DNA from: Alphaproteobacteria bacterium
GTDB taxonomy: Bacteria > Pseudomonadota > Alphaproteobacteria > Micavibrionales > UBA2020
Assembly (NCBI GenBank): GCA_027483355.1
Contig: JAIXUW010000292.1
Coordinates: 68,628-132,627, forward strand
Length of the DNA stretch: 64,000 nt
Direction: 5' to 3'
Part shown: piece after piece, positions 1 through 64,000 of the stretch
Layout of the letters: each line of letters opens with the position of its first letter
Numbering within the stretch: the stretch's first letter is position 1
The notes under the pieces: generated by a model
What the model saw: the letters and a program-made list of their open reading frames with translations, nothing else
Database searches by the model: none
What the model was told of the DNA's origin: nothing
Made by a program: the position numbers and the translations under genes

Positions 1-3000
1 TACCAGCTGAATACGTCTAGTCCATCGTATAGATTGTTGAACCCTTGGGCGGGACAATGGGGACCTTCGTAGTTCACGGCGGTGCCGTTGTAAAGCACGG
101 ATCCGAATCCAGATGAACATTGAGTGCACGTGTTCAGATTATAGTCCGTGTTGCTGACAAACATTCCCAGGAGCGGAGAGCATTTGTTGAAAACGGTGTA
201 CGCAATAAAGTCAAACGCGTCTTTGGTGTAGCATTGAGGGATAAAGAATCCGCATCCAAACGACCAGCCGTAAGTGACGACCATGTGAAGTGGGATCAAG
301 AAGGGAGCTATCGTGCTCAGGAACACTCCAGCCGCGATTGGGTTGACAAAGACAAACACAAATAGGAATATGGTGAATACCACAGTCAGAATCTGTATCC
401 ATCCTCCAGCCCAACTGAATGTTCGTTTAGAGCAGTCCAAGTCCGTGGCGTAGTTACACGAGTACTTGTCGTAGATCGACGACGCAATCTCGCGGTAGTT
501 TGTGGTAATAAAGTCAATGATCGTGTCCACAAACTGAAGAACGGGAATTTGCAAAACATTCTCGATGAAATTGAACGTTTCCCACAATACGTTGACGTCA
601 ACCAGACCCGCGGCTCTCTCTTGCAAATACGTGTTGAATTGCGTCATCAGAGTACCATTTTGCACGAGTTCAGTCGGAAGAGGCACGCCGACCGTTTCTT
701 GGAAGAACCAATCGAGTTTGGGTCCCCAATCAAAGGGAAATCCTACGGCCTCACGAGGCGTGAATCTAAACCATTCGGCGGTACTCAGACCTCGAGCCGG
801 GAATCGAACTGGGTAGTTACCGTATCCAATGCGGACAGTCGTCGCCAAGTTGAACGTGTAGAGCAGAAAGTCCACACATGACAAGAAGGCTGCGGGGAAC
901 CACACCGTATAATATCCAATAGTCCAGAGGACTTGAGACACGATTTTTCCAACGACGTAATCGACGACAATACACTGCTCACAGAGTGTGGCGTCTCCGA
1001 GCTGACAGCCGAGAACGGATCGAGCAAAATCAATGCTTTCATTACGCGACTCTGGGAAGAAAAACTGGCTGCCGATAGACACGGATTCGGCCGTCGCCAT
1101 TCTGTTCTGTTTGCTGCCCAAATACGAATTGCCTACTTTGTTCTGCAAGACTCGAATTTCCACAACGTTGTGCGCGCGCACGGGCTTCAAATGCTTGGGC
1201 ATGGCTCTCATTTGCGCGATAAAACCTGGTTCTGTGCGGATTGCAGAAGCGGACGCGATTAGCGCGTATTGGCGACCGTCGGACAAACGAGACAGTTCGC
1301 CAGTCAACTCGGCCCGCTCGATTGCGGTCAGATTTCTCACTCCCTGAGCTGACATCATGATCTTTTGTTCAATGTCAGGACGCCTATCAATCAAAAGTGC
1401 CTCTCGATGTGTTTTGATTTGCACAATGGGAACTCGGTCGTCTCTCATGGTCGCCTTTTTGCCCGTCGCCTGTTCGTACAATTTGCGTCTAAACGTAATC
1501 GAATTCAACGTAATCGTGCGCTGATCCATCCAGATGTTCTCGTTTTGTAACGCGGTCTCGGCGGCAAGCGGCGTTTTCGTCTGGAAAAGCGACATGTAGA
1601 CTTCACGATCGGCCATCATTCGGGATTCTTCCAAAAAGAACTGAGTGGCTGCTCGAGTCACTGCAGCCGTTACCGTGTTGGATTGGCGGAATAGAGAACC
1701 CGTCTGCCTGGGATCCGTCGTGTTGTACGTTGACAATGGGACGCTAGAGGCAGCGTTTGCAGTTGTCTCCTCCACAACGTAATTGGCGTAGGACATGGCG
1801 TGATCTTGCAAACTAATTGTCGCATTGCCCTCCGAATAATCCTTGTACGTAGGCGTGCTCTGGAATTTCCGCTTCCATTCTCTGTACGCTTCTTGCTCTT
1901 CGTAAAACGTTTTGAACCGATTCTGCGACTGCTGAGCTGCTTTGGGGTCATAAATCACAGTTTCGGTCGTCTCAGTATTCGCAAAGCTCTGCTTGACATC
2001 TGAATTCAATTGATCCCAGTTTCTTTTCACAGACTGAAGCAAACGAGGAATGTTCTCATTATCCAAATGATGCTGGATTCGAGTCGTAAACTCAGTGCTG
2101 TAGGTCACAAACGCAGAAGCCAAAGAATACGTGAGCTGGCGTGCACCGCGAGCTTCGGGAGTTCGGGGCTGGCTCAATTCGGTCAGAACAGACGCAGTTT
2201 CGTTGGCCAAAAACTGGAAATCCTCCGTGATATTGTAGGACGGGTCCAGGAACTTGGTGGACAGAGTCCAGTCGTACTTGACGGAGCAGTTGGCGATATT
2301 GGCCGTCGCGTTACTCAATGAACACCAATAGGGGATGTAGGACGTGTTCAAGCGCGAAAGAGACGCGAACGCGCTTACAGATGCCACGACAAGTCTATGG
2401 AGTCTAGGTTGCTTTTCCAAATGGACCGGCGGCGTAGTCGTTGCCGGGTACTCGTCGGCGTCCATAGATCTCTTTTTCGTATTATAGTAATGCTGGGCCC
2501 ATTGTTCGTTGGCGGCACCGTTTGCAATCATGAATTCGTCGACGCGAGACGCGGCCGATTCCCAAATCGAATCGATGACCTGGCTGAATGTCAAACGAGG
2601 TCCTCTTTCAACACTGGCGTCTACAAGCACGCGTTTTTGTCCAGGAGTGCTTTCAGTTTCCTCCACTGAACGCTTTTTGCGTTTCTTGTTCTCAATTTCC
2701 CACGGATCCCTGTCCATGTAGTTTGAACTGTCTAGCACGTCGTGGAAATCCAGCCCATCTTCAGTAATCGTCCATGTCGAGATGATATCTTGAATGAATT
2801 TAGTGACTCCAGTCAACATCTGACCAAGAACGACGTAGAGATTGGCGTTGACTCGTGATTCGTCGTAGCTTGACACGTACTGGTCACCGTACTGTTTGTA
2901 GACCTCGGCTCTAACATTGCTTTCGTTATTCCAAACGTAGATGGAAGTGGAGCTGTAGTAAGAACCGTCGTCGAGAGACATATTTGTGACAGGATCCATG

Positions 3001-6000
3001 CCTTGAGCGATTCGCAACAATGCCGGGTCCGTGGAAAGATACAATGTGTTGTTGTACTGAATATCGGCGACAGTGTAGATGAAATTCGTGGTGCTCAAAT
3101 AAGATCGGTACAGGACGTCGGCGTAGGTCTGAATTCCGCCCGTGGTGTCTCCGAATCTCGATTTGCCGTAATCAGGATCGAAAAACTCGGGGACATTTCG
3201 TTTGAGATACCAGTCAATCGTCAAAGATTGTCTGTAGTGCTCAAAAAGAACATATGTGAGCTCGGATAGCCCGGGCCCAGGGTACAATTGCCGCATTTCG
3301 TTCTCGTAGTGAGACACATTAAGTCCCATGGCTTTCCATCTCATTTTCCATTCAGTGGACATGACTCGGTCTCGCGTCATGATCTTGTCAAATACAAATT
3401 GAGCGCCAATGACCGTAAATCGCGCAACGTGCGCAAATACATCAAATATACGAATGGGGTTGTACTTTATGTCCTTGGGGAGCCAGGACAAGAATGGAGA
3501 AGAGCTGGCCAGAGACACGGACACGGCAACGGATTGCAGACATTCCGTGTACACGTATACATCTGCGGCACGAAGCTCGCTGTACTTGGTTCCGTTTATG
3601 AAGCGGAAAAACTCGTGGCATGGAGTTCCAGGAGTCCATCCAACGTAGGTGGCGTAATGGGTGGGCAGATCTTCGGCAGTCGGGTTGCGATAGACTCTGA
3701 TAATCTCCGAGGTGCCGTTTGAATAAGTGACATTGAGTTCGAACATGAATCCGAATGCTTTTTGCATAGGCTCGGTCATGTTGACATACGCGTAAAAATC
3801 AGAAGTGCCTCTCTTCTTGTAATTCGTGCCCTCGTCTGCGTTGGCAAGATTGCCCGTTTGGCCTTTCAAAAAGTCGACAATGCGTCGGCAGCCTTTGCAA
3901 GGTTCGCATGAAGAGCAAATGCAGAGTAAACCGCAGACGGCTTCGATAATGGAAGTGATCCATCCCAAAAACAGACCAACGATGGAGAAGAAGATTTGCT
4001 CAAATGTGACACCCACGATTTGGAAGAATTTTTGAATGATCGTAGTAAACGTTCCCGTCGTGAAACCGCCAAAGATGCCTTGAATGACATAGAAAAACAG
4101 TTCTATGATCGCCGTAACCGTATCCCTCAATATAGACCCGAGGCGAATCAAGAACGAGTTGATGAGGCACAAAAACTGCGAAGTGGCAGTGACGTCTGAC
4201 GACGTGATCGCGCTAAGCCAGCAATCGACGGCATGAGCAAACGGGCATAGGGGTGATAATATCTTGTCGATGAAAATAGCGTAAATGTTTGAGATCACAG
4301 AAATCAAAGGACCCTTGCCGTTTACGAATTCGAAATTAGAGCCGTATTGTAGGAAAATGGCGATCAATTCAGGTCCGACTGCCAAGTAATTACCAAGACG
4401 GCATGCAAACGTTGCCATGCATACATTGGGCGTCTGGCGCGTCGGCAAGCTTCTAAATTCTCGAACGGCGCAAAATCCAGGTCTCGTGGCATGGCATTGC
4501 AAATCAATGGGGATTAGATAGGCGATCGTGGTTCCTAGACGACATCCAAAGCGATACGCTGTCTGATTGAAACCCGAGATGTCGAGTGGAGTGACTGGGC
4601 CGAGTTGACCTTGCGAGGTCACGGACACGAACGCTTTGACCACGTTTTTAATGCTTCTCAAAAGCAAAAGGAATCCTCGGATGAATAGCTGCACTAGAGC
4701 CTCGAATGTGGCTCCTAATCCGCACACGAACGACAAGCGGGATCGACATGTGACTGCATCCGCATTGTCAAATCGGTAAATGAACGTGGCAATGTTGCTG
4801 ATTTGAAGGGCTTCGGTTTCAAGCGCGTTCAAGGGCGCGTTGGGAGTGTTGTCCAAAAGATCCAGAATGGATGGATTGTTTTGCTCGTAGGCCCAACGAG
4901 TGTAGGCAAGCAAGTAGATGGGCACTCGGATACCCAAATTCAGAAACACGTTGAGTGCGCTCTGCAAGAATCGACCGATTCCAGGGTCGAGTAATCCAAA
5001 CGTGCATCCGAACGACTTGGCAAATCGCGGAATCTGAGCACTAAATTCCTGCAGTCTGTCACCGTCTCGGACGAAATAGAGAGCCGAGAAATACCCAGGC
5101 CACTTGGTCAACTCTAACAAAGTATACATTTCACCAAACGCCAAGTCTAGAACGATGTAGACCGCGGCGACTAGAGCGCGGCCTAATCCGCCAATAATTG
5201 GTCCAAACTTGATGTTCTGATCTTCACCATAAAACTCGTTTCCTTCGACCACGCATGTTGGAGCAATGTCCAAAAGCCCTTCGGCGCTATCAAAAAAGTT
5301 GATCAAGTTGACACGCAACATGTTAAACGTCAAGAATGTGTTTCCGCCCAATGTGAACCACGAAGGTGCGTAGAATATTAGTCTTAAAGCTTCCCAGAAC
5401 AAGGAAGACGCGGAAGCAAAGAAGAATCCGACAGTCTCGGCATATCGGGACTTGAAAAAGTTGACCAGATATTGGATGTAGCTTTCTGGAGGCTGTGGGA
5501 TCGGAAGCGACCCATTCACATACCCTTTGATATTTCCCAAGTAAATGTCGAACTGGATCACGGTCACGTTTTGAATCCAGAATCCGGCATTTTGCAACGC
5601 GACAGTGGTTAAATCGTTGAATTTCTCAATCGAGGGCCCGGTCTGTTTCAACACAGGCATGAAAAACAGTTGCTGAACAGCTGTCCAAGGAAGGTAAAGA
5701 ATACTGGCCACAGTATTCCTGAGCGACTGTTGTCTGAGTGACTCGCCGATTCCGCCCACAACGTATTTGAGGTACTGACAAGACGGAAGAATCGATCCCG
5801 CGTACAATTCGTATGCAAACTCGAATACATAAGTGAGAGGTTCGTCTAGAGGATACTGAGTGTAGAGGGGATTGCTGTTGATCCAGAACACCAAGCCTAG
5901 AATTAGAGAGGCCACAAATTGCCCGAACAATTTGGCTAAAGTAATAAAATTGGTGACCACAAAGGTCAAAAGCACTCGCGCGGGCCCCCACATGAGAAGG

Positions 6001-6692
6001 TTGTACACTCTGTAGAGCAGCACCGCAATTCCGAGTGAAAGCGTGGGAATCATGACCACGACTATATTTGTGAGCGGCAGTGCCAAAAAGTCGACGGCCA
6101 GTGGTCGAATAGTACATTGCCACGCTTGCACGACTATCGGGACAGTGGTGTCAAATGTTTCTCGAAGTCCGTAAGCGGCGAATGAGAGGCCGCCAAGCAC
6201 AAGAATGGGGAGCGCAAGAGCGACACCGTTTGATCCTGCGCTTTTGACAGAATCCACAAACCCGGATACGAGCAGAACGCCAGTGCCGACCAAGGCACCG
6301 AACGCCGTGCTCAACGACGACACTTCCACTGCTTTGGCACGCTGGCTTTCCAAGTCAGATTCTTGAATTTGGCCTATTGAATCGGCCGTAGTGACTAATG
6401 TCAGGAACCCAGGTGCGTACTTGGCAATGCGAACGCGGCGGGCTTTTTCCTCGGGTGACAACGGCTTTGGTTTTCGCGCCACGAGTGCCCAGAATATACA
6501 GAACAATAGGGCGGTGATAATCATAAAACCTAGAATTTCAGCTCCAATGAGGAGAATGGCGACCGACAACTTGCGTCGGTCCAGAGCCGAGGAGCTTCCG
6601 GTAGCTTTGACCAATAAAGGTACAACAGCCGATGCTAGAGTCCAAGCTGCGCCCAGCGCACTAAAGGCAGGCGGGACAATAGCAGCGGCCAT
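1..6692 (-). CDS. Giant polytopic membrane protein; 5' end complete, 3' end beyond the window (at least 2230 aa)
   Basis: ATG at 6690-6692 (minus) in context GAAAAAAAA-ATG. In my manual translation the frame stays open all the way to position 1. It is missing from the ORF track only because no stop lies in the window, and none of the listed minus ORFs in 1-6700 shares its frame. N-terminus MAAAIVPPAFSALGAAW. It has many ~20-aa hydrophobic segments, numerous NxS/T sequons, the Cys cluster CGLLCICSSCEPCKGC and a KKRKKR|S site. Confidence 0.8.
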   Translation of the reverse strand, partial: MAAAIVPPAFSALGAAWTLASAVVPLLVKATGSSSALDRRKLSVAILLIGAEILGFMIITALLFCIFWALVARKPKPLSPEEKARRVRIAKYAPGFLTLVTTADSIGQIQESDLESQRAKAVEVSSLSTAFGALVGTGVLLVSGFVDSVKSAGSNGVALALPILVLGGLSFAAYGLRETFDTTVPIVVQAWQCTIRPLAVDFLALPLTNIVVVMIPTLSLGIAVLLYRVYNLLMWGPARVLLTFVVTNFITLAKLFGQFVASLILGLVFWINSNPLYTQYPLDEPLTYVFEFAYELYAGSILPSCQYLKYVVGGIGESLRQQSLRNTVASILYLPWTAVQQLFFMPVLKQTGPSIEKFNDLTTVALQNAGFWIQNVTVIQFDIYLGNIKGYVNGSLPIPQPPESYIQYLVNFFKSRYAETVGFFFASASSLFWEALRLIFYAPSWFTLGGNTFLTFNMLRVNLINFFDSAEGLLDIAPTCVVEGNEFYGEDQNIKFGPIIGGLGRALVAAVYIVLDLAFGEMYTLLELTKWPGYFSALYFVRDGDRLQEFSAQIPRFAKSFGCTFGLLDPGIGRFLQSALNVFLNLGIRVPIYLLAYTRWAYEQNNPSILDLLDNTPNAPLNALETEALQISNIATFIYRFDNADAVTCRSRLSFVCGLGATFEALVQLFIRGFLLLLRSIKNVVKAFVSVTSQGQLGPVTPLDISGFNQTAYRFGCRLGTTIAYLIPIDLQCHATRPGFCAVREFRSLPTRQTPNVCMATFACRLGNYLAVGPELIAIFLQYGSNFEFVNGKGPLISVISNIYAIFIDKILSPLCPFAHAVDCWLSAITSSDVTATSQFLCLINSFLIRLGSILRDTVTAIIELFFYVIQGIFGGFTTGTFTTIIQKFFQIVGVTFEQIFFSIVGLFLGWITSIIEAVCGLLCICSSCEPCKGCRRIVDFLKGQTGNLANADEGTNYKKRGTSDFYAYVNMTEPMQKAFGFMFELNVTYSNGTSEIIRVYRNPTAEDLPTHYATYVGWTPGTPCHEFFRFINGTKYSELRAADVYVYTECLQSVAVSVSLASSSPFLSWLPKDIKYNPIRIFDVFAHVARFTVIGAQFVFDKIMTRDRVMSTEWKMRWKAMGLNVSHYENEMRQLYPGPGLSELTYVLFEHYRQSLTIDWYLKRNVPEFFDPDYGKSRFGDTTGGIQTYADVLYRSYLSTTNFIYTVADIQYNNTLYLSTDPALLRIAQGMDPVTNMSLDDGSYYSSTSIYVWNNESNVRAEVYKQYGDQYVSSYDESRVNANLYVVLGQMLTGVTKFIQDIISTWTITEDGLDFHDVLDSSNYMDRDPWEIENKKRKKRSVEETESTPGQKRVLVDASVERGPRLTFSQVIDSIWESAASRVDEFMIANGAANEQWAQHYYNTKKRSMDADEYPATTTPPVHLEKQPRLHRLVVASVSAFASLSRLNTSYIPYWCSLSNATANIANCSVKYDWTLSTKFLDPSYNITEDFQFLANETASVLTELSQPRTPEARGARQLTYSLASAFVTYSTEFTTRIQHHLDNENIPRLLQSVKRNWDQLNSDVKQSFANTETTETVIYDPKAAQQSQNRFKTFYEEQEAYREWKRKFQSTPTYKDYSEGNATISLQDHAMSYANYVVEETTANAASSVPLSTYNTTDPRQTGSLFRQSNTVTAAVTRAATQFFLEESRMMADREVYMSLFQTKTPLAAETALQNENIWMDQRTITLNSITFRRKLYEQATGKKATMRDDRVPIVQIKTHREALLIDRRPDIEQKIMMSAQGVRNLTAIERAELTGELSRLSDGRQYALIASASAIRTEPGFIAQMRAMPKHLKPVRAHNVVEIRVLQNKVGNSYLGSKQNRMATAESVSIGSQFFFPESRNESIDFARSVLGCQLGDATLCEQCIVVDYVVGKIVSQVLWTIGYYTVWFPAAFLSCVDFLLYTFNLATTVRIGYGNYPVRFPARGLSTAEWFRFTPREAVGFPFDWGPKLDWFFQETVGVPLPTELVQNGTLMTQFNTYLQERAAGLVDVNVLWETFNFIENVLQIPVLQFVDTIIDFITTNYREIASSIYDKYSCNYATDLDCSKRTFSWAGGWIQILTVVFTIFLFVFVFVNPIAAGVFLSTIAPFLIPLHMVVTYGWSFGCGFFIPQCYTKDAFDFIAYTVFNKCSPLLGMFVSNTDYNLNTCTQCSSGFGSVLYNGTAVNYEGPHCPAQGFNNLYDGLDVFSW

Positions 6693-6721: not shown

Positions 6722-6920
6722 TGCGTGTTTTACAGACAAAGGTTCATGTAATCAAATGTGCGCAAAAAATGCGACTCAATGGCAATTATTTCAAAATAAA
6801 TGGGCGAGCTTGAAGAAATCAAATTACCCAAGCAGTTATTTAAAATTTTGCGCTTGGACGGCTCCATGTAACCAGTACATGATTCACAGATTTACAATTC
6901 AAGCCGGTTGTTTTTGTGCA

Positions 6921-9731
6921 ATGTTAAAAGCGGCGTTAGTCGCTCTGATTGCTCTTGGAATCGCAACTGTCACCGCGGCCCCGCTTTCAAATGCCGCCGA
7001 GTCTGGCGTATCGCGCTACTGTGGCGCGGTTCTATACAATCGCTTTAACAATGTAAGCGACATTGTGAACTGCGATTTCATGTCCACGGCGTCGTGGCCC
7101 ACTCAAACAATCATAGTAAACAATGTACCGGTCGTGGCCTCGTTTCCCACAGGTAGATTGCGACTCTCTTTTTTCGGAACGTATCCCATGCCGCCATTTG
7201 CAACTGTGTTGCCTATTGGAGATGATAGAAACGATGTGGTTGCAAGTGATCCCGCCATCATGCAGGCCCCGGACTACTTGACGGATTTCAACGGTTTCAA
7301 TCTGAGAAATTATTGGTTCAATACGAGCATGGTTGGGCGTAAATTCCCCGACATGTTGACCTTTTCTATCCCGTGGTGCGCAGCCAATCTTGACTATGCA
7401 ACTCCATACAGTGGAAACGCGACAATTCAACAGCTATACCCGCCCGATTACCCTGTGTGGTCTAATCCGAGTGACACCACGCTCCCCGAGTGCCGCACGC
7501 CGTTGCTGTTCAACTATAGGCCGATCGGAGGCTCTACTGCCGCACAGCGATTTGATACACATTGCAACGGCACATTTTCTCAAACCTGTTTGCAATCGCC
7601 ACGCCTTAACTTTGGAACAGGGCGTCCTAGCGTGCCGAATGACCCTTTCTACTTGACTCGACCTGAATTGGCCGAACTGAACAATTATCCTAGTTACGCA
7701 CTCAACCCCAAAGTTTCAAGATGGGGTCGCAACTACTATGATGTACCTCCGGATTCAATCGGCAATTTCTGGGGCCGAGGAATCGCGCGCGACCAAGGCG
7801 ACGATATAGTCGGCACCTACACATGGATTCGCCCGCCGAATTGCACCATGGAGCTTTATACTAGCCAGAATAAGACACCGATTATCAATTTTGATTTTGA
7901 AGGGCTGTATGATCAACAGGACGGTGCGCCTGTTCTCATTGAGTGGGATTCCAACACACCTGCTGCCAACGCAAGTAGACCTTGGATGAACAGAGTCAGT
8001 TTTATGCCTGGCCTGTCATGTTTCGCATTGAACCCTAGACCGGCATCCGCCCTGCGGTTTTCGGAATCCAACGTGGCTTTAGTGACCGGCATCTGTCGTG
8101 CTACAGCGCCTTGGAACGCGACCAAATACTCGAGCAGTTTAGACCAATTCGCGTATTTGACATTGACCGGTGGCGTCACTCAACCGTCGTCAATCGCACC
8201 TAACACGGTCGCCGTTCAAATCGCAGTCTACAACCTTCCCTCAGATGGAATGTCCGTTTATACTACAGTCGACGCGGTTCAATACGCTCCCAACGGTACT
8301 ATGGACCCCATTGTGCTTAGAGTGAGCAATAATCTGTTTCTGCAAAACGGAAAGATCTCTCAGTTTACGGTTGATTACACTCAAATCGCAGGATCATTCC
8401 AGAACGTATGGGATCTTTTCCTGACCGTGTTTGCGCCTGACAACACTCCCATTTTGTCATTGAGACTTCCCGAAGATAATTCAATCCCTCCATGTGCTTG
8501 CAGACCAAGCGCGGATGTGTTGGACGGGAACGTGATTTGCGATACGGATTTCAAAGTGATTGAAGACACGATCATTACCAATCCTCTCTTCGTGCCAGGT
8601 CAAACCACAGTTAGACCTAACTGTACTATCGTATTGACTTCGGTTCAAGGCTCTTTCATACGAGGGAACTCGACGATAGAGCAGAATTCATTGTACCAAC
8701 TGAACTTGAATATCAACGGCAGTAGCGACAACGGGTATATTGTAGGCTGGAATGTCATGAATAATGGAGCATTGTCCGTGCAAATAGACACTCCGGAAGG
8801 TCAGACAGCTCAATTCAGAGCGTTTGGCGAGGGTCAGTTTACAATTCAAGCTGCGGTCACAGTGCCCGTTTCACTTTTAAAGGGAACGTGCTTTGTCGAC
8901 ATTCAAGTGTTTAGAACATGCGTGACTCCTGCTATAGCGGCTGGAACTACGGACGCGGATTTGAATCAACTGGTCACGCTCGACGCCACTGTAACATTGA
9001 TTCCTAGTGGCAATGTATACTATGATTACTCGTGGACAATTGACAATGCCGTTCCATTATCTTCATTGGGATCGGCGTCGATAACAAACGCGGCTGCGTC
9101 TGTAATTTGGTTTTCTGCGTCAAGCACGGCGCTCTACACTCTTAAGCTACAACTCGACACATACGACGTGACTTCTCTCTCTCTATTATGCGTTCAGTAC
9201 CGATATATCGACATTGCAGTGTCGAACAAGACGCTGCCGCCGATAGACCCGGGAGTCGCAGACACTGTTGTCATTCCCGATGTATGCTTTGAAAACATTG
9301 GCAATTTTACGAAGCCGATTCCACCAACGGGCGAATACATTAACGGGTTGCCGCCGACTGACCCAGTCAATTTCCAGCCCATCGGCAGCGTCAATTTTGC
9401 TCAAGACGATAGCTGGAAACTTACAAAGCTTGTGAGGAATTTGGCAAGAATGAACTTTTCAGAAGAAGACGAAGGAGTAAGAATGAAGAAGGCCGAGTCG
9501 GAGAACTTGGCCGTTCAAATCGCTTACACGGCCATCCGCGTTATTGTTGGAATCTTTGGCACTGCTCTAGGTATTCTAGTATCCGTATCGTTATACACAT
9601 TGTTGCCACTGTCGGCGCAAGAAAAACTCAGGACGTGTTGCTCGCGCAAGAGCTGCAAAAAATGCAAACGCTGCAAGCCGTGTTGCGGCAAGCCCTGTTG
9701 CGGCAAAAAGAAACACAGAAACCAAAAGTAG
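6921..9731 (+). CDS. Type I membrane glycoprotein, paralogue A (936 aa), with a PKD-like Ig domain and a Cys/Lys-rich cytoplasmic tail
   Basis: Internal ATG of track ORF 6756..9731 that starts a signal peptide (MLKAALVALIALGIATVTAAP). It has many NxS/T sequons and a C-terminal TM segment (IVGIFGTALGILVSVSLYTLL). Its Cys scaffold is shared with the 10869..13463 product. Confidence 0.85.
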   Translation: MLKAALVALIALGIATVTAAPLSNAAESGVSRYCGAVLYNRFNNVSDIVNCDFMSTASWPTQTIIVNNVPVVASFPTGRLRLSFFGTYPMPPFATVLPIGDDRNDVVASDPAIMQAPDYLTDFNGFNLRNYWFNTSMVGRKFPDMLTFSIPWCAANLDYATPYSGNATIQQLYPPDYPVWSNPSDTTLPECRTPLLFNYRPIGGSTAAQRFDTHCNGTFSQTCLQSPRLNFGTGRPSVPNDPFYLTRPELAELNNYPSYALNPKVSRWGRNYYDVPPDSIGNFWGRGIARDQGDDIVGTYTWIRPPNCTMELYTSQNKTPIINFDFEGLYDQQDGAPVLIEWDSNTPAANASRPWMNRVSFMPGLSCFALNPRPASALRFSESNVALVTGICRATAPWNATKYSSSLDQFAYLTLTGGVTQPSSIAPNTVAVQIAVYNLPSDGMSVYTTVDAVQYAPNGTMDPIVLRVSNNLFLQNGKISQFTVDYTQIAGSFQNVWDLFLTVFAPDNTPILSLRLPEDNSIPPCACRPSADVLDGNVICDTDFKVIEDTIITNPLFVPGQTTVRPNCTIVLTSVQGSFIRGNSTIEQNSLYQLNLNINGSSDNGYIVGWNVMNNGALSVQIDTPEGQTAQFRAFGEGQFTIQAAVTVPVSLLKGTCFVDIQVFRTCVTPAIAAGTTDADLNQLVTLDATVTLIPSGNVYYDYSWTIDNAVPLSSLGSASITNAAASVIWFSASSTALYTLKLQLDTYDVTSLSLLCVQYRYIDIAVSNKTLPPIDPGVADTVVIPDVCFENIGNFTKPIPPTGEYINGLPPTDPVNFQPIGSVNFAQDDSWKLTKLVRNLARMNFSEEDEGVRMKKAESENLAVQIAYTAIRVIVGIFGTALGILVSVSLYTLLPLSAQEKLRTCCSRKSCKKCKRCKPCCGKPCCGKKKHRNQK

Positions 9732-15200: not shown

Positions 15201-15262
15201 GGCTTTTGCAGTATCAATAGTAAACACGTACACTAAAACACATGGAATTGTATGATAACAGA

Positions 15263-54789: not shown

Positions 54790-54894
54790 TTTTGTGAGAT
54801 TCGTGAGTATACAATGAAATGCGTGCTTTGTATAGCGTGTCAGATACAATAAATTGGGTTAAACCGTGAACCCATGTGCGTTTTTTGGTACTGG

Positions 54895-54912
54895 AAAATT
54901 GCGCGCAATTTT
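54895..54912. repeat. Perfect 18-bp palindrome AAAATTGCGCGCAATTTT in an intergenic gap
   Basis: Read directly. It lies between the start of paralogue 2 and the stop of paralogue 3 and contains GCGCAA on both strands. Confidence 0.8.
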
Positions 54913-55017
54913 GCACACTTACCCAAATTGGACCAATCGACGCTGGCTCACTGGAAATACCACAGCAAAGAAATATACATTAGTACATCAATACATGCCT
55001 AATACACGTTGATGAGA

Positions 55018-56701: not shown

Positions 56702-58339
56702 ATGTCCGCGCCTTTTACTTTGTACGACCTCCCGGACGAACTACTCACCAACCACATCATCCAACATTTGGATTTCACAAGCCGTCGCTGTCTAACATGC
56801 GCAGGCAAACGCGGTCGCGACATGGTGGTTGCTACACGCGGCGTGATTCATCGACCCGGAGCATGGGGCGCTTCTGCCTCTCCTCCTCTTCCCAACAATC
56901 TTTGGGTATTTTACGAGGCATGCACACGTACCTATGCCTTTGCATGCACCAACAGCTGCGAGCCTATCCTGCGTTACAAAATGGGCTGGCTGACCGTGCC
57001 CTTTGTTGGCTCCAGGCAAGTTCTCCGCGCCTTTGACTGGATGTCTCTTCGCGTGGGATTCGCGTTTTTGGCATCCCCTCGCGATTTTGCGAGCGTGGTA
57101 TGGTGTTACATTAGGAAAGATTCGCGAAAGCATTGTCTCGGATTGCAGGATTTGCTCCACCGCCAAGTGCCGCAGGTCAACGACGACGTTGTTGACATTA
57201 CTCCTGCGCTCAGATATTTCGAAGCCGTTTGCGGTTATATGGCGAAATCGGAGAAGGATTTGTTTAGGATTTTTGCGCTATTGTTCAAGCGCCGCCTTTC
57301 GACATTTGAAGAGGCCTGGGACACGGTCGGCCGTGACGCGCCTGACGGAAATCAGGACGAGTGGCTTACAAAGAAATGCATTAGATTGGAGCTTAATGCA
57401 ATGTGCCACGCTTGGTCGTATCTCCAAATTCTTTGCGCGACTCTTCGCGAGAGGACCATTTCTTCTTCTTCTGCGGATGCCGAAGCCACTGATATGACTG
57501 CCGCAATTCGACTGCGAAGTTTTTACAACGAACTGCCTTGGCAGCATTATAGCGACAGCGACGACATTGTGGAGAATACCATAGCCTGGCCTGGATGCAC
57601 TTTTCAGGATGTTTCTCAGTTTTATTCGGAGACGGCTCAAGTCAACACCGCCTACTCAAAGTGCAAGGATGAGATGACGGAGTGCATTTTTAAGCTTGTT
57701 GCCCCATGCGAATCGAAAGACGCCCGACTTCTAGCTGGTGATCGGGGTCAGACCGTTTACGGATCAGAACCTGCAAATGCTTTGCTCTACATCTCAGCGG
57801 CTGTGCGCTATTACGCATTGGACCCCTGTATGAGCGAATATGACGAGAAGTTTCGTGTCTCCATTCACCGCGCTGTGAAACGCGATCTGCTCGTTTCTAC
57901 TGAACTTCCCGCGCACATCACAGCGCAGATGAATCGAACAATGTTTGTGCCTCTCCCATTTCACTTTAAGAGCGAATTCGATGCAGCCACGGCGAACGTG
58001 GACAAGTACGTTGCTTATTTTGCTTCATGCAACGGACATTTTCAGTTTTGGGACCCGGCATTGGTGGATGCCTCTATCAACGCGGGCAACATTCCTTATC
58101 TGTCTCGCAAAGAAACCATCTTGTTGATTCGGAGAATGGGCAGACGTACGTTGGGTCTCGTGTCTGACGCCGACGAATTCTTCCCTTTGGATCCCGAGCG
58201 CGATGACGATGACTATTGGGGACATGGCACGACCTTAAATTGGAACCTGATGCTACTTGATGGCACTGTGGTAGAAGAATTGTGCAAGCGAAACCCTGTT
58301 CAGGTGGGGTGGATTCATAACACACGCGTTTGGCGCTAG
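56702..58339 (+). CDS. F-box protein (545 aa)
   Basis: First ATG at 56702. The N-terminus MSAPFTLYDLPDELLTNHIIQHLDFTSRRCLTCAGKRGRDMV fits the F-box consensus (LPdEll..I...L......l..vck.w). I do not recognise the C-terminal 500 aa. Confidence 0.8.
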   Translation: MSAPFTLYDLPDELLTNHIIQHLDFTSRRCLTCAGKRGRDMVVATRGVIHRPGAWGASASPPLPNNLWVFYEACTRTYAFACTNSCEPILRYKMGWLTVPFVGSRQVLRAFDWMSLRVGFAFLASPRDFASVVWCYIRKDSRKHCLGLQDLLHRQVPQVNDDVVDITPALRYFEAVCGYMAKSEKDLFRIFALLFKRRLSTFEEAWDTVGRDAPDGNQDEWLTKKCIRLELNAMCHAWSYLQILCATLRERTISSSSADAEATDMTAAIRLRSFYNELPWQHYSDSDDIVENTIAWPGCTFQDVSQFYSETAQVNTAYSKCKDEMTECIFKLVAPCESKDARLLAGDRGQTVYGSEPANALLYISAAVRYYALDPCMSEYDEKFRVSIHRAVKRDLLVSTELPAHITAQMNRTMFVPLPFHFKSEFDAATANVDKYVAYFASCNGHFQFWDPALVDASINAGNIPYLSRKETILLIRRMGRRTLGLVSDADEFFPLDPERDDDDYWGHGTTLNWNLMLLDGTVVEELCKRNPVQVGWIHNTRVWR

Positions 58340-58396: not shown

Positions 58397-60349
58397 ATGG
58401 ATCTCGTTCAATACCGCAATTGGTGCTGGCCAGACTCGGGCGACGATTTTCACGCGTGGTTGCGGGCCCACCCGACGATCCCGTATTTTGACCATGAAAA
58501 ATTCCGACTCATGAAAGTGCAAGAGTACTCGAGATACTATGAAGAACTCAAAATGAGCAAGGCGCCCATTTTCACGTCGGGTTTACTCGGCTCGCGCCGT
58601 CCCAAGGAAGTAAACGTGACGCTGTTAGTCATGGAATGTCAATTGTTGGACAGATACGCGTTAGTTCGATCCATGAACAAATTGGGCGAAGAGGAGACTA
58701 TTGCGATCGAGCCCACTGCCGAGTACAAGGCAGCGCCGTTCAACATTAACATCAATCGGTATTTTGAGCGGTTCTTTGTAGAAGACGGTTGCGCGATTCA
58801 GGAAAATCAAAGAGGAAGTGAAAAGACGATTCGAGGATCGTTTGGTAAACCATTCAATTGCTTGTACAGCATTACAGCACACGGAGTGATCACATGTCAG
58901 CTGTCCAAAGAAAGCATTCAATGTATGCTTACGGCCATGCTGGCTTTGGAGACTTTAATCCAACGCGTTGAGCAGGTGCATCGACCGACGGCGACTCCGT
59001 TTACTGTGCGCCACGCCCGCATAGCTACGATGCAAGCCACATGTGATTTCGGAGTCAAAGCCGATGTGCATGCTCTGAAATTCTGGAACCCTTGGAGTAC
59101 AAAGGAGTATACTAAAAATACGACGGCTGGGTTTGAAAGCACAGACACTGACACTGGTGCGACTTCCTCAAACTCGCCTGCGAAACAAGGCAATAGTGGC
59201 AGCGGTAGCAGTAGTAGTAGAAAGAAAAGCGGACTAGAATCCAAAATGAATATCCAATTCAACAATATTGTGTATTACACGGCGAGCTCGGCGAGTTTCC
59301 GTCAAATGTGCATTCCCAAGCCTCCGTTTTTCGCCATGACCAACGAAACGCGATACGAAGCCGAAAAGGACTTTTTGGTCGGCAATTTGACACCCGTCTC
59401 ACCCGAGGCAGGCTATGTGAGCAGGGAAGACAAGTTGCCCTGTCGCCCCACGACGATTTCGACTGTTTTCATGGCTCAACACGGCAAATCCACAGTTTCT
59501 TGCATCAATTGCACGAGTTGGATCGAGTGCCTGGCGGGGTTTACGGAGCTTTACGAGCAAATTCTGTTTTGTGAATACGCCGGACGATTGATCGAGCCCG
59601 CGCTGTCCGAATGCCGATCTATGATTGTTAATTGCAAGGAGTCTCTAAACAAGTTTATGTATCAAAAGGATCTGGCCGATATCGTATGCGAGCACTTTAA
59701 GAAAACGTTTTGTCCTGTATGGAGTTCCATTGTCGTGTTCCCGTCGGACAAAATCACGCCCGAATTCGCGCGAGAAATACAAGATATTGTGAGCTCGACG
59801 CTCGTAAATTCATTCTACAACTGCAGGAATCACACGACCAAGGAGCATTACTCGGCCGACTTGTTCAAGGGATTAGAGATCGAGCTCAATGAACGAATCG
59901 AGGCGGAACTCAGAATACAAGAAGAACTGAAAATGAGACTTAATTCCGACAAATTCTACGACGTGAAACGAGCAAAGGGTGGTGCAAAAGGCGCGGCGGC
60001 CAATAATTCTACCGCCTCAGCCGCGGCGGCTGCAAGTCGTGCGACCAATCTACGCGCTCGAGGTCAGACTACGGCCAAAAATGGCGCTGTAGCAAAACAA
60101 GGCGCGAAACGACGCGTCGTGTACTTGAATTCCACTCCTCTGCCGCTCACCTCGACTCCAAGCCACCATCACTTTGAAGACGAATACGCTTCGTCTGATG
60201 TGGCGCCCAAGGCGAGCCAATCTTGCCCCAAATGCATCATGGGACTTTTACTGCTGCACTTGCCCTACATTAGACAAGATGAAATTCACTTTATGGACAA
60301 GATAAGAGGCGTGACCGACAATATGTGGCTGTATTTACAAACTAAATGA
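58397..60349 (+). CDS. Hypothetical protein (650 aa)
   Basis: First ATG at 58397 (MDLVQYRNWCW) with CTATAAATC about 30 nt upstream. It has a Ser-rich patch (GNSGSGSSSSRKKSG). Its 3' end overlaps the convergent gene by 15 nt. Confidence 0.8.
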   Translation: MDLVQYRNWCWPDSGDDFHAWLRAHPTIPYFDHEKFRLMKVQEYSRYYEELKMSKAPIFTSGLLGSRRPKEVNVTLLVMECQLLDRYALVRSMNKLGEEETIAIEPTAEYKAAPFNININRYFERFFVEDGCAIQENQRGSEKTIRGSFGKPFNCLYSITAHGVITCQLSKESIQCMLTAMLALETLIQRVEQVHRPTATPFTVRHARIATMQATCDFGVKADVHALKFWNPWSTKEYTKNTTAGFESTDTDTGATSSNSPAKQGNSGSGSSSSRKKSGLESKMNIQFNNIVYYTASSASFRQMCIPKPPFFAMTNETRYEAEKDFLVGNLTPVSPEAGYVSREDKLPCRPTTISTVFMAQHGKSTVSCINCTSWIECLAGFTELYEQILFCEYAGRLIEPALSECRSMIVNCKESLNKFMYQKDLADIVCEHFKKTFCPVWSSIVVFPSDKITPEFAREIQDIVSSTLVNSFYNCRNHTTKEHYSADLFKGLEIELNERIEAELRIQEELKMRLNSDKFYDVKRAKGGAKGAAANNSTASAAAAASRATNLRARGQTTAKNGAVAKQGAKRRVVYLNSTPLPLTSTPSHHHFEDEYASSDVAPKASQSCPKCIMGLLLLHLPYIRQDEIHFMDKIRGVTDNMWLYLQTK

Positions 60350-61096
60350 ACTCAGTTCTTCCCCGTCTCTTGAAATCTGCGCGGTCGTTTGCTGCTGTGA
60401 AGACAATTCAAACTCGGCGACGCTGATGCGTGGCGGCTCGAGAGGCACGGGTGGCATGTCGGTCAGCAACAAATCCGGGCCGGCATACTCCACATGTACG
60501 AGTGGATCTGAAGCTGGTAATATGGACTCTCCCAGTTCTTCTAGCGCTTCGTCGAGAGACATATCCGCTGTGGGATCCAAGTTGACAAATTCGTGCTTTG
60601 TTTCTTCAATCACCGCGTCCATGTCCTCGATCACGTCGGCCAGTTCGTCTGTATGCGCCACGTAAGCTCTCTCGGTTTGTTCGATTTGAGGCAAAGCTGC
60701 TTTTCCAAGTCTAGCCGTGGCCAAAGTCAACTGAGCCGCGTTGGCAATCGTCCTTTCTTTCATAATCGTTTCCTGAACTTTGTTTGCCGTCGCCAGCACC
60801 GTCTGTATTCTTTTCAAATCATGTTTTGCAGTGTCAATGTCACGCTTGAGAGCCACGCAACTTTGACTGAGCCGTCGCGCTTGCTCTTTGGACTTTGGGT
60901 CGTCGCGCAAAAGAAGTTTTTTGAGCACCAACGTGTCATTATGAAATCTTGATTCCTTCTCTTGAACCATGACCTGAATCCGCATAGCGTCTTGGAGCAC
61001 TCGTTGGTGCTTGGAAAGAGTCTCGGATTCGAGTGGCGACCGATGAGCAACTTGGGTTCCACGTTTAGAGCCGCGATTCGCACCAGCGTACGCCAT
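60335..61096 (-). CDS. Snf7/ESCRT-III-like (CHMP2/Vps2-type) protein (253 aa)
   Basis: First ATG at 61096 (MAYAGANRGSKRG). It has a basic helical N-terminal half and an acidic C-terminal half. HQRVLQDAMR, then 96 aa, then LPQIEQTERAYVAHTDELADVIEDMDAVIEE...DEALEELGESI parallels human CHMP2A NQRALNRAMR, 92 aa, LPQIQKIMMEFERQAEIMDMKEEMMNDAIDD...SQVLDELGLSL (CHMP2A recalled from memory). Confidence 0.75.
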   Translation of the reverse strand: MAYAGANRGSKRGTQVAHRSPLESETLSKHQRVLQDAMRIQVMVQEKESRFHNDTLVLKKLLLRDDPKSKEQARRLSQSCVALKRDIDTAKHDLKRIQTVLATANKVQETIMKERTIANAAQLTLATARLGKAALPQIEQTERAYVAHTDELADVIEDMDAVIEETKHEFVNLDPTADMSLDEALEELGESILPASDPLVHVEYAGPDLLLTDMPPVPLEPPRISVAEFELSSQQQTTAQISRDGEELSSFSL

Positions 61097-61125: not shown

Positions 61126-63333
61126 CTATTTACGCGGCACGAACTCGGGCGGTAGTCGATCTGCTAATAGCTGTGGCTGTGGGCGATAGTCTTGTATCCT
61201 CTGCAGCAATTCTCTTAGCAGTCTCGCAGACGATTTCGCAGACACTAGCGTTTCAATTGGTCCGCTTCCAGTTTCCTTTCGAACGACGAGAATAAATTTG
61301 GCTACGAATTCCGCAAACAGAGACTTGAATCCAGTATCGGGCATTGTAATCGTCGGCATCGGGTCAAAATACTGCCAGTTCATATCAAACCCACGCACGG
61401 AGGTTTTCATGTGCGAAGTTGCGGTTTGAATCGCGGCTTGCACGACTGGAGAAAATCTAAACGTGCCACTCATGACCGGGTCAACACGACGTGCTACTTG
61501 AGCTATGATTGCCTTTTTTGCGGCTTCCTGAGAAATATAATCCTTGATTTGGGGCAGTGAAAAGATTTGCTGCCTGGTTTCGTCAATCTGCATGCGATTT
61601 TGCTCGACTTTTTTCACAGAGGCTGCTTGGATGGGTTCCATGAGCATAGCGACAACTTCGTGTACGAATTGATACATCAAAACGTTGACAATGACCGCGA
61701 AGCGCAGATCAAAGTAAATGTTTATACGATATTCGGCTACAAAATTGTAGAGCATGCACGCTAATGAAAGCAGAATTTCCGCTTTACTCAGTCTCGCGGG
61801 GTCGTTGAATAGAAACCCAATATTTGTACTTGCAAAGTTAGGTATGTCGCGAATTAGCCCAAGAGCTTCACGCGGCTCTCCGAGTTTCACGAGGCATTCT
61901 TGTATTTTTACTTGCAATTCATTGGTGTCGCTGTGTCGAGACAGTTGGTGCAAAATATGCGCGCACTTTTTGAACACGTCGGATAATGCAGTTTCCTTTT
62001 CCAAATACACTGCCAAATTAGAGATGGCAGTTTTGAGGGGCGTCAAGTCCTCTATCTTCTGCAATTCGGGTTGCACAAATTTCAACAATCCTGTAGCAAC
62101 CTCGGCCTTTCTTTTGCTTGCTTCGGCGCTGTTTGAACCTTTGTATTTATACTTGACCGCAGACAGCGCGGTTCGCGCCAACTCGTCGGCCGTGTCCGCA
62201 ATCTGACCGGCGCGGAAATTTACAAATGGAACACGGTCGCCATCGGAGTCAATACTTGATTCTGTATACGGGGTGTATTCTAGTGTCACCGTAGAATCGC
62301 CTTTGTAAGGAACGCTCAGAGTAAATAGGTTGACATATTTGGAAAGGCTTGCCAGTGCCTCGTTGGATGCAAAATCTGGCGCAGTGGCTTCGGTTTTAAT
62401 CGTTTCCCATATATCGCCCAAAATCGATGTGTATGCGTCGTTTGCGTTTCCAAGACCAGTGCCAGGCGCAAACGCCGACTTGATGGACTCAAGTTTAGAA
62501 CTTGCCAGGTATCTGTCGAGTGCTCCATTCGGACCTAAAATTTGCACTTTTGCGCGATAATGCCCCTGTGCCGACTGGAGGGTGAGTCCGTTGCCAATCT
62601 TTCTCACCAGGTCATCGATTTTTTGTATAAACTGAGGCCCTGAAAAGGACTTGATAGGTGGCATGACAAGATTGACAGCTTGTCCAATTTCGCTGACGAT
62701 AGCGTTTAGCGCGGTTTGATTCATCGCCAAGAGACTATCGGATTGTTTAGCCACGGGTATAAAATTTTTGAGATCTTTTAGAAAATCGCGCATGAAATCC
62801 GAAAATTGGTTTTTGACAATGGTCGTGTAGTCGGATCTCAGCAACAAGTCGGTTGTTTGAACTTGCAAATTGCCTTGAATGCCAATCAAGAATTGGTATG
62901 TCGGATCGGCTAATAGCAAAGCCAGACGAGCGTCAAGAAGTTCAAACACTTCGTCGCTAAATGCTTTTTGTATACGCGCTGTGTCTGTTTCTTTACTCGT
63001 GGCATTTTCTACGAATCGATTGTAAATCCGAAGATCCTTTGCGTCCGTCGGCACCGCGTTCACCCATTCGGCTTTAAACCTGTCGCCGGCTTCAGCCGAC
63101 GCTCTATCCACAGCATATCCGTCTACTGTTGGAACAAGATACTTGGCCGCGCCTGTAGCAAGCGTTGGCACGACGAATGGCTTTGAAAAGTCAGCTTCTC
63201 TTGCCGCGGCTATGTGATCGTCCGAATCACTCTGTTCTATCTTCTGCCTCTTGGGCGCTCTAATTTCGTCAACGTAAGCGCTTGATTCGGGTACCGCTCC
63301 GCTGCGATACCAAGGAACGTTTGAAGCGGACAT
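61126..63333 (-). CDS. Large hypothetical protein (735 aa) with an N-terminal NLS-like APKRQK
   Basis: ATG start (MSASNVPWYRSGAV) and an uninterrupted ORF. No motif recognised. Confidence 0.85.
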   Translation of the reverse strand: MSASNVPWYRSGAVPESSAYVDEIRAPKRQKIEQSDSDDHIAAAREADFSKPFVVPTLATGAAKYLVPTVDGYAVDRASAEAGDRFKAEWVNAVPTDAKDLRIYNRFVENATSKETDTARIQKAFSDEVFELLDARLALLLADPTYQFLIGIQGNLQVQTTDLLLRSDYTTIVKNQFSDFMRDFLKDLKNFIPVAKQSDSLLAMNQTALNAIVSEIGQAVNLVMPPIKSFSGPQFIQKIDDLVRKIGNGLTLQSAQGHYRAKVQILGPNGALDRYLASSKLESIKSAFAPGTGLGNANDAYTSILGDIWETIKTEATAPDFASNEALASLSKYVNLFTLSVPYKGDSTVTLEYTPYTESSIDSDGDRVPFVNFRAGQIADTADELARTALSAVKYKYKGSNSAEASKRKAEVATGLLKFVQPELQKIEDLTPLKTAISNLAVYLEKETALSDVFKKCAHILHQLSRHSDTNELQVKIQECLVKLGEPREALGLIRDIPNFASTNIGFLFNDPARLSKAEILLSLACMLYNFVAEYRINIYFDLRFAVIVNVLMYQFVHEVVAMLMEPIQAASVKKVEQNRMQIDETRQQIFSLPQIKDYISQEAAKKAIIAQVARRVDPVMSGTFRFSPVVQAAIQTATSHMKTSVRGFDMNWQYFDPMPTITMPDTGFKSLFAEFVAKFILVVRKETGSGPIETLVSAKSSARLLRELLQRIQDYRPQPQLLADRLPPEFVPRK

Positions 63334-63551: not shown

Positions 63552-64000
63552 ATGAACGCCGCCGAGGAGGATACGGTGCGACAGCATGTCAACAAAGTTC
63601 GCCAGGTTGCGAGTAGCGAATTCAAGCTCGCGGCGCTGTTTATGATTGAAAAAGCATATCGGCTGCCTGATGAAAATCGCTTGAACTTTATAAAACAATG
63701 CGTTGCATGCTATGATGGAGATATTGCAATGGTCTGGAGCCCAGACGACGCCTTGCTTCCGCCCGATTTGGGAACAGACAATGTCGACGCTGTAGAAAAT
63801 CAAAGAACAGAATTGGCATCGATTTTATATGACAATTTGAACCCTTGGGACAAGGGTACACTAGAAGTGTTTGATGGCAACGTCGCAGCTAGGCGGCTGT
63901 GGCGCTCGTTCTTGTTCCTTCTGCGATTCAAAATTGCATTGGAAAATATGACGCCGCAAATGGGCCAAAACCAAAATGACGCTATCGTGGCCGATAGACA
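63552..64000 (+). CDS. Hypothetical protein; 5' end complete, 3' end beyond the window (at least 149 aa)
   Basis: The ATG at 63552 (MNAAEEDTVRQHVNKVRQVASSEF...) stays open to 64000 in my translation. It is not in the ORF track because it has no stop. The listed antisense ORF 63450..63803 looks spurious. Confidence 0.6.
   Translation, partial: MNAAEEDTVRQHVNKVRQVASSEFKLAALFMIEKAYRLPDENRLNFIKQCVACYDGDIAMVWSPDDALLPPDLGTDNVDAVENQRTELASILYDNLNPWDKGTLEVFDGNVAARRLWRSFLFLLRFKIALENMTPQMGQNQNDAIVADR

Follow-up and report, generated by a model that had tools for sequence, protein, structure and literature searches.

A 64-kb contig segment with eukaryotic nuclear expression signals, probably from a marine eukaryote's large DNA virus or virus-like episome

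We analysed a 64-kb stretch of DNA (the window), which covers positions 68,628 to 132,627 and represents 22% of a 292,368-bp NCBI contig, JAIXUW010000292.1 of assembly GCA_027483355.1, filed under an alphaproteobacterium. The window probably derives from a large virus with a double-stranded DNA genome, or from a virus-like episome, that has a marine eukaryote as host, is expressed through the nuclear machinery of that host and belongs to a sparsely sampled lineage, whose detected relatives are a few contigs from ocean metagenomes and sequencing runs. We infer the viral status from the architecture of the window, its gene content and the behaviour of a relative retrieved from Tara Oceans, and not from a capsid or packaging gene; virion production, nuclear replication and the roles of the conserved uncharacterised proteins are likewise inferred. 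The window sequence is already public: its proteins are on record identically in the NCBI contig and in short Logan contigs of SRR16126875 and SRR16126878, the latter matching the window at 100% identity, spacers included. An exact 50-mer of the window was found neither in the GTDB species-representative genomes nor in IMG/VR, and no description of the sequence was found in the literature.

The gene set, defined as non-overlapping open reading frames (ORFs) of at least 100 aa starting at their first ATG, comprises 35 ORFs distributed on both strands with frequent strand switches and covering 90.6% of the window. The median length of the 34 spacers is about 125 nt, the extremes being -15 and 723 nt. 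GC content is even along the window (0.46-0.50), and CpG shows no depletion (observed/expected ratio 1.26). Five products reach 991, 864, 2400, 930 and 948 aa, and a further ORF of at least 2230 codons is truncated at the left edge. Three families of paralogues were recovered by BLASTP: ORF2/ORF4 (E 1e-19; 23% identity in an alignment of about 850 aa), ORF17/ORF18 (E 5e-9) and ORF28/29/30 (E 1e-14 to 1e-20). ARAGORN predicted no tRNA in the window, neither rRNA nor any other Rfam family reached its gathering score, and no housekeeping gene was found among the 35 consecutive ORFs. An initial annotation made from the sequence alone had described this dense arrangement on both strands with short spacers, the sizes of the large products, the three paralogue families and the lack of tRNA, rRNA and housekeeping genes, all of which agree with the present analysis; its count of about 38 ORFs is lowered to 35. 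Only two of the 35 products passed a Pfam cut-off (search at E<=0.01), the helicase ORF11 and ORF4 with its PKD domain. Among PHROG families only the helicase found a match, nine other window proteins finding none, and searches of PDB sequences with ORF1, ORF7, ORF20, ORF21, ORF26 and ORF33, and with family profiles of ORF20 and ORF32, returned nothing under E 0.02.

The signals that would govern expression of these genes are of eukaryotic type. The sense strand of the ORFs contains the polyadenylation signal AATAAA 3 times, where 12.5 +/- 3.0 copies are expected from permuting synonymous codons within each gene (200 shuffles), and ATTAAA also 3 times, where 15.6 +/- 3.1 are expected; in neither case did any of the 200 shuffles give so low a count. 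Both signals are thereby depleted 4-5 fold relative to the shuffles, whereas their reverse complements are undepleted (29 and 24 of the 200 shuffles as low). This strand-specific avoidance is expected if the transcripts are cleaved and polyadenylated by a eukaryotic machinery. Of 33 spacers, 17 contain AATAAA or its complement and 10 contain runs of A8 or T8, both being rare or absent in coding sequence, and GTGTGTG occurs in 8 of the 33 spacers against twice in 58 kb of coding sequence; the GC content of the spacers is 0.415, that of the coding sequence 0.484. At the starts, an A stands at -3 in 21 of the 35 ORFs and a purine in 26, and the Shine-Dalgarno sequences GGAGG and AGGAG are essentially absent upstream of the 35 starts. 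The baculovirus late motif TAAG is not enriched (1.19/kb upstream, 1.05/kb in coding sequence), nor are promoter motifs of the white spot syndrome virus type (ATNAC) or of the mimivirus type (AAAATTGA) enriched upstream of the genes. As read from sequence, expression signals of the eukaryotic nuclear, RNA polymerase II (Pol II) type are present. GT-rich tracts (GTGTGTG, GAGTGAGTGCGTGAGTG) often adjoin TATA-like or AATAAA elements, for example at 51978-52014, 31290-31330 and 38500-38558, and are candidate promoter elements or downstream poly(A) elements.

ORF11 (28816..30765, minus strand, 649 aa) is the most clearly recognisable product and is solidly predicted to be a PIF1-like helicase of superfamily 1B (SF1B). 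It carries a Walker A motif, APGGSGKS, at residue 43, the only one in the window, and passed the Pfam cut-offs for PIF1 (42.7 bits, cut-off 25.9), AAA_30 (51.3, cut-off 27), UvrD_C_2 (30.0, cut-off 27.4) and AAA_19; Pif1_2B remained under its cut-off (19.8 bits against 23.9), as did a Herpes_Helicase match at 21 bits. It also matched the Dda-like helicase of PHROG at 1e-46. ORF11 thus shares with the helicases of the PIF1/RecD/Dda type the Walker A motif and the succession of AAA_30, PIF1, 2B-domain and UvrD_C_2 regions, but is longer than typical viral PIF1-like proteins, which measure 409-566 aa in all matches but one. Its homologues outside the window are distant, with at most 24% identity over long alignments in a word-indexed search. 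The two nearest outside homologues with examined contigs (24-27% identity) sit on giant-virus-like metagenomic contigs; these contigs, L004 (JGI 3300050206) and L006/L007 (ENA ERZ25070185, ERZ25072740), carry genes for thymidylate synthase, PARG, D123, glutaredoxin, SWIB and glycosyltransferase.

The lineage to which the window belongs was delineated with ORF20 (38559..41351, minus strand, 930 aa), its signature gene. An exhaustive phmmer search with this protein retrieved 10 representatives among 1.84 billion protein clusters, the best at 55-56% identity. The family spans 758-1071 aa and displays an invariant D455-C456-E457 and H564, together with the motifs GKYRSD, ESTxPVS and FGVPxED; it has no match in Pfam, PDB or PHROG, and our guess from the conserved residues is that it may be a Cys-His enzyme. 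We also considered ORF20 as a mirusvirus major capsid protein (MCP) and rejected this assignment, since its 930 aa exceed the approximately 700 aa of the MCP listed for a demutovirus and a true mirusvirus MCP should find far more than 10 relatives.

The closest relative of ORF20 is encoded on TARA_SAMEA4397004_METAG-scaffold_7, a Tara Oceans scaffold of 208,465 bp detected in 3 samples, of which 19 kb were covered by our analysis. Over this part the scaffold has a GC content of 0.47 and is collinear with ORF14 to ORF26 of the window. Identities reach 78.5% for ORF14 (over 121 aa), 40% for ORF15, 42% for ORF16, 55% for ORF20 and 44% for ORF21; ORF19 (37071..37964, minus strand), a predicted membrane protein with about three hydrophobic segments, is conserved at 29-38% identity (E 3e-37), and the homologues of ORF24 (26%) and ORF26 (22%) are diverged. 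The best conserved sequence shared with the Tara relative is the C-terminal 132 aa of ORF14 (32243..32824, minus strand), encoded at 32243-32641 from Met62, which has no family match and shows a ratio of nonsynonymous to synonymous differences (pN/pS) of 0.24. As the conservation begins at this internal methionine, the true gene probably encodes 132 aa. ORF15 (33059-34480, minus strand) and ORF16 (34614-36125, plus strand) form a divergent pair whose arrangement is kept in the Tara relative (E about 1e-102 to 1e-104; pN/pS 0.50). Across the genes compared, pS is saturated (0.74-0.83) and pN is low (0.18-0.42), which indicates real genes under long-term constraint. In our reading the Tara relative behaves as an abundant discrete replicon.

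ORF21 (41456..42709, minus strand) adjoins ORF20 in the window and likewise in the Tara relative, and is a putative DOT1-like methyltransferase dependent on S-adenosylmethionine (SAM). Its motif I, LLDIGAGTGSLV, aligns with methyltransferases of the PDB, and the Tara orthologue has an unmarked DOT1 match on record. The match of the window copy itself to Pfam DOT1 is restricted to profile positions 42-91 and, with 19 bits, stays under the cut-off of 23. The DOT1-like label of the initial annotation is thereby confirmed only in part.

More distant members of the ORF20 family are located on Logan contigs of SRR28285599, SRR17938973 and SRR24908177, in GCA_006365035.1 and GCA_006365135.1, on an ENA KRAE22-1 scaffold and on a JGI contig, with GC contents of 0.47-0.56; the related loci examined total about 130 kb. 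A scan of JGI data found one 4.6-kb Tara contig. Three additional window proteins have counterparts at these loci. ORF32 (58397..60349, plus strand, 650 aa) constitutes a second lineage-wide family, with the motifs WPxSG, ECQL, IQR and LLLLHLP...IHF, phmmer E values of 9e-25 to locus L016 and 4e-8 to L011, and no PDB match. ORF32-like and ORF20-like genes stand head-to-head in these two distant relatives (L011 7325-12922, L016 265-5296) and are 17 kb apart in the window, which points to a conserved pair rearranged in this genome. ORF10 (27508..28758, plus strand) combines an acidic disordered N-terminus and a KRRK motif with a conserved C-terminal domain of the form H-x3-C-x2-C, and weakly matches an ORF of L009 (14046-15458, phmmer E 2e-4) in which the H..C..C motif is aligned. 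ORF34 (61126..63333, minus strand, 735 aa) weakly resembles a 1243-aa protein that adjoins the ORF32-like gene in a distant relative (phmmer E 2.7e-4). Genes in the neighbourhood of the distant ORF20-like genes encode a deoxynucleoside kinase (dNK), an SNF2 ATPase, a Sina-type RING protein, a DUF285 protein and a YqaJ recombinase; giant ORFs (1243-2041 aa) also occur there, and the others are without Pfam match. Large eukaryotic DNA viruses typically carry such a set of kinase, SNF2, RING, YqaJ and giant-ORF genes. The dNK gene is close to the ORF20-like gene in L009 (1047-7611), L014 (965-8365) and L010 (10417-11394) and has no counterpart in the window; in two of the relatives bearing it, an ORF of 1775 or 2041 aa adjoins the kinase.

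Several products of the window are predicted membrane proteins that would pass through a eukaryotic secretory pathway. ORF2 (6756..9731, plus strand) and its paralogue ORF4 (10869..13463, plus strand) are predicted type I membrane glycoproteins. ORF2 has 16 N-x-S/T glycosylation sites (sequons) and 31 cysteines, and its internal Met42 (6879), which yields a signal peptide, is probably the right start, giving a product of 950 aa. ORF4 has 17 sequons, a signal peptide of cleavable type (MKYKLDSLYIFLLAAVLGLACQTARAQ), a PKD domain at residues 663-741 (26.5 bits against a Pfam cut-off of 23.5) and a C-terminal transmembrane segment. The C-terminal transmembrane segment of ORF2 is followed by an extremely Cys/Lys-rich cytoplasmic tail (9550-9731), CCSRKSCKKCKRCKPCCGKPCCGKKKHRNQK, which ORF4 does not have and which could serve palmitoylation or metal binding. 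ORF25 is a predicted type II membrane glycoprotein with 9 sequons in 329 aa. Sequon density in ORF2, ORF4 and ORF25 is 2.3-3.9 times the window average of 0.70 per 100 aa. The tandem paralogues ORF17 and ORF18 (36153..37050, plus strand; 134 and 139 aa) each end in a single C-terminal hydrophobic segment and are predicted to be tail-anchored.

ORF33 (60335..61096, minus strand, 253 aa) is predicted to form a long helical hairpin with an acidic tail. Searched with Foldseek against PDB, its AlphaFold2 (AF2) model, which shows the long hairpin at a mean predicted local distance difference test score (pLDDT) of 70.7, placed members of the ESCRT-III superfamily in 12 of the 15 top ranks, with E values of only 0.09-0.4; the matches include CHMP1B, Asgard ESCRT-IIIB, Loki CHMP4-7, CHMP2A/3 and Vipp1. 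In BFVD, the second-ranked entry is a 'Snf7 family protein' (E 0.013). At the sequence level, ORF33 had no Pfam Snf7 match at E<=10, and hhalign against CHMP sequences returned a probability of 0.2%. An ESCRT-III/Snf7-like fold is therefore weakly suggested by the model, as a lead and not a demonstration.

These results permit a revision of the domain labels on which the initial annotation had based its argument that the window contains host-derived acquisitions typical of large eukaryotic DNA viruses. The PIF1-like helicase and the PKD domain, both above Pfam cut-offs, and the DOT1-like methyltransferase mainly carry this argument, whereas the Snf7-like label, failing at the Pfam and hhalign level, keeps weak fold-level support for ORF33, and the BTB and F-box labels are unsupported. 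The former had been given to ORF28, ORF29 and ORF30 (52069..56292, minus strand), three tandem paralogues of 415-442 aa, which have no Pfam BTB match at E<=10; against BTB sequences, hhalign gave a probability of 0.16% (below 1%), the alignment falling on the canonical motif, and a profile of the three proteins matched only itself in the word-indexed search, with no outside homologue. The latter concerned ORF31 (56702..58339, plus strand, 545 aa), whose N-terminus, LYDLPDELLTNHIIQHLD, contains an LPDELL-type motif that is F-box-like by eye only, with no Pfam F-box match at E<=10. The attribution of the window to a eukaryotic virus is itself maintained by the avoidance of poly(A) signals, the Kozak-like starts, the glycoproteins and the collinear Tara relative, while its description as dominated by orphan genes has to be tempered, at least 10 genes having homologues.

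From these elements the following way of life can be proposed. The element would be a virus genome, or an episomal or recently integrated virus-like element, whose lineage is defined by the conserved ORF20, ORF32, ORF10 and ORF34 families. Its genes would be transcribed by the host Pol II from TATA-like, A/T-rich promoters, and its mRNAs would be cleaved and polyadenylated by the machinery of the host at AAUAAA or AUUAAA in the short spacers, which would imply a nuclear phase. The ORF11 helicase would serve the replication or recombination of the DNA of the element, which would also supply the DOT1-like SAM-dependent methyltransferase. The host secretory pathway would produce the two type I glycoproteins, the type II glycoprotein, the two tail-anchored proteins and several multi-pass proteins, a set that would suit an enveloped particle or a remodelling of host membranes. 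With such a role the possible ESCRT-III-like protein would also be consistent.

Several observations weigh against this interpretation. Neither the window nor the related loci contain a match, by Pfam, PHROG or PDB sequence, to an HK97 or double-jelly-roll capsid protein, a terminase, an A32 packaging ATPase, a portal, a DNA polymerase of family B (PolB) or an RNA polymerase (RNAP); the earlier remark that capsid, polymerase and packaging motifs are missing from the window thus still applies. These searches covered the 64-kb window and about 130 kb of related loci. No relative turned up in IMG/VR, which was scanned with ORF14, the helicase and a profile of ORF20. The AF2 model of the ORF28 family, with a pLDDT of 38, was unusable. 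AATAAA is also equally frequent upstream and downstream of genes, as the spacers are shared between neighbouring genes; the polyadenylation argument rests on the depletion observed on the coding strand.

Which virus group would host such a genome is a question of lower confidence. Our leading specific reading, a guess which leaves the phylum open, is that of a nuclear-type mirusvirus (Mirusviricota), whose herpes-like HK97 capsid module would be located elsewhere in the genome and which would rely on host polymerases and have few annotatable genes; this reading is tentative. According to PMC12768974, mirusvirus genomes average 265 kb with a GC content of 25-72%, the Okeanovirales and Styxvirales are without PolB and RNAP with only 13-14% of their genes matching Pfam, Snf7, Snf2 ATPases and RING proteins count among the core functions, and several genomes have annotated PIF1-like helicases. 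The window shares with the nuclear mirusviruses a marine origin, a genome size within 200-400 kb, the scarcity of annotatable genes, the absence of PolB and RNAP in view and a predicted reliance on the host nucleus. In favour of this affiliation are the PIF1-type ORF11, the SNF2 and Sina_RING genes of the relatives, the marine Tara and mOTUs-type assemblies from which these originate, the nuclear-type expression signals, and the fact that the second BFVD rank of ORF33 is the same entry which PMC12768974 gives as structural match of a mirusvirus Snf7. On the other hand, no match to MCP, triplex, portal or protease was obtained with Pfam, PHROG or PDB sequences, proteins which usually require dedicated hidden Markov models or structure comparison, nor was there a terminase match by Pfam in the window, where the sole Walker A motif is that of the helicase. 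TBP, histone and heliorhodopsin are also absent from the window, and the SNF2 and Sina_RING genes occur in relatives but not in it. Moreover, the nuclear mirusvirus orders are intron-rich, with about 0.2 introns/kb in PMC12768974, while 90.6% of the window is uninterrupted ORF, and ORF33 fails the Pfam Snf7 model which the mirusvirus Snf7 proteins described there pass.

It is also conceivable, if rather unlikely, that the window, the Tara scaffold and the ORF20-family contigs form a lineage of large nucleus-dependent DNA viruses infecting marine eukaryotes, outside Mirusviricota, Nucleocytoviricota, Herpesvirales and Naldaviricetes, with a core of its own (ORF20, ORF32, ORF10 and ORF34) and particle genes that are unrelated to known ones or unrecognisable. 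With the Herpesvirales, especially those of fish and molluscs, the window has in common host-type TATA and AATAAA signals for nuclear transcription, type I glycoproteins, giant uncharacterised proteins and an SF1 helicase, but this helicase is PIF1/Dda-like and not UL5-like, no herpesvirus core gene was detected, and the relatives come from plankton metagenomes.

An unlikely origin, in our estimation, is a member of the Nucleocytoviricota which, like skiaviruses or phaeoviruses, would have lost its transcription and replication enzymes, its double-jelly-roll capsid and A32 genes lying outside the window. It is favoured by the YqaJ gene adjoining the ORF20-like gene in L016 and L012, by the two nearest examined helicase homologues being on giant-virus-like contigs, and by a sub-threshold Pfam match of ORF23 to DUF5900, an accession whose sole mention in a paper concerns nucleocytoplasmic large DNA viruses (NCLDVs). 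The Skiavirales, large viruses of protists, lack RNAP and mostly also PolB. A YqaJ recombinase belongs to their tiny core, and their genomes, of 190-252 kb, have been found only with thraustochytrids (bioRxiv 10.64898/2026.07.28.741200). They resemble the window in the absence of RNAP, the general absence of PolB and a huge accessory set of uncharacterised genes, and the relatives of the window in the presence of YqaJ, but differ by carrying a double-jelly-roll MCP, A32, VLTF3, A22, WLM and Herpes_ori_bp, none of which was seen here. An identity with skiaviruses proper is unlikely, the contig measuring 292 kb against 190-252 kb and its relatives being from the open ocean. For the Nucleocytoviricota as a whole, Pfam revealed no Capsid_NCLDV, A32, VLTF3, A22, D5, PolB or RNAP match in the window or the related loci, and neither the ORF20 family nor that of ORF32 is a known core gene of NCLDVs.

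A large nuclear DNA virus of the arthropod type infecting a marine animal such as a copepod, close to nimaviruses or Naldaviricetes, is improbable. The size near 300 kb, the many products above 800 aa, the use of both strands and the few domains may resemble white spot syndrome virus, spacers with AATAAA followed by GT-rich tracts resemble animal poly(A) sites, and dNK genes are present in the relatives. However, no per os infectivity factor gene (p74, pif1-3, pif5) was found by Pfam in the window, TAAG and ATNAC are not enriched upstream of genes, and among the 10 proteins from the exhaustive ORF20 search none is virus-named by its source. Finally, compact cellular eukaryotes (protist, microsporidian or nucleomorph) can have dense intron-less ORFs and the helicase matches the phage Dda-like family, but an ordinary region of such a genome, or a prokaryotic element (jumbo phage or megaplasmid), is highly improbable in view of 35 consecutive genes with two Pfam-level annotations and no housekeeping, ribosomal or tRNA gene, the missing Shine-Dalgarno sequences, the frequent strand switches, the signal-peptide and N-glycan features, the nine other proteins without PHROG match and the absence from the GTDB species-representative genomes; the strand-specific AAUAAA avoidance argues against a prokaryote.

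ORF1 (3..6692, minus strand; at least 2230 aa, its C-terminus lying beyond the window edge) is predicted from hydropathy to be a multi-pass membrane protein, with many hydrophobic segments, mostly in residues 1-920, and gave empty Pfam and PDB searches. ORF5 to ORF8 (13476..26633, minus strand) form a co-directional block without annotation, composed of ORF5 (574 aa), ORF6 (606 aa, coiled-coil-like in composition), ORF7 (2400 aa, containing a tandem repeat of 10 aa) and ORF8 (720 aa, with Pro/Ala-rich linkers). The repeat DNA of ORF7 (17985-18157, minus strand) consists of a 30-nt unit in 5.8 copies with 95% match, adjoined by degenerate 21/42-nt repeats, and the word-indexed search with ORF7 returned only itself. 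The block ORF24 to ORF26 (45414..50998, plus strand) contains ORF24 with a Cys-rich C-terminus, the glycoprotein ORF25 and ORF26 (948 aa), which includes an acidic tract. On the antisense strand of the helicase gene, a 32-nt stretch (30280-30311) is 91% identical to 45623-45654 in ORF24 and 72% identical to a second copy at 46028-46059, 405 nt onward. Both ORF24 copies encode F-x2-AMQH, and ORF24 therefore has an internal repeat; the match with the helicase gene could be fortuitous. In the public protein collection, ORF30 appears with 469 aa (55018-56427), necessarily started at GTG, and ORF2 with 950 aa from the internal ATG. Such GTG and internal starts point to a prokaryote-style gene caller behind the collection and have no bearing on the annotation of the NCBI record itself.

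The longest non-coding gap (42710-43432) encloses an imperfect palindrome of about 80 nt (42927..43010) with the structure CACGATGGCC-A8T6-GGGCCGGGGCCCCGGGCGG-A3T9-CGGACCATCGTG, which is unique in the window and folds as DNA at -26.9 kcal/mol (z -5.6). It is flanked by a 25-nt inverted repeat (42749-42773 and 43275-43299, 501 nt apart). This palindrome could be a candidate origin or bidirectional control element.

Large marine DNA viruses that depend entirely on the host nucleus, such as nuclear mirusviruses and skiaviruses, have only recently been recognised, mainly through their capsid genes, whereas the lineage described here was reached through a conserved protein family, that of ORF20. 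It counts about 10 cluster representatives, yet in one Tara Oceans sample a member ranks among the largest assembled scaffolds. A strand-specific avoidance of poly(A) signals also offers a simple test for eukaryotic nuclear expression, which needs nothing but sequence and could be used on other unclassified contigs. If a known capsid module is present in these genomes, they would extend a young phylum and add new conserved genes to it, notably the 930-aa ORF20 with its invariant Cys and His residues; if there is none, capsid-centred surveys would be missing whole groups of large viruses.

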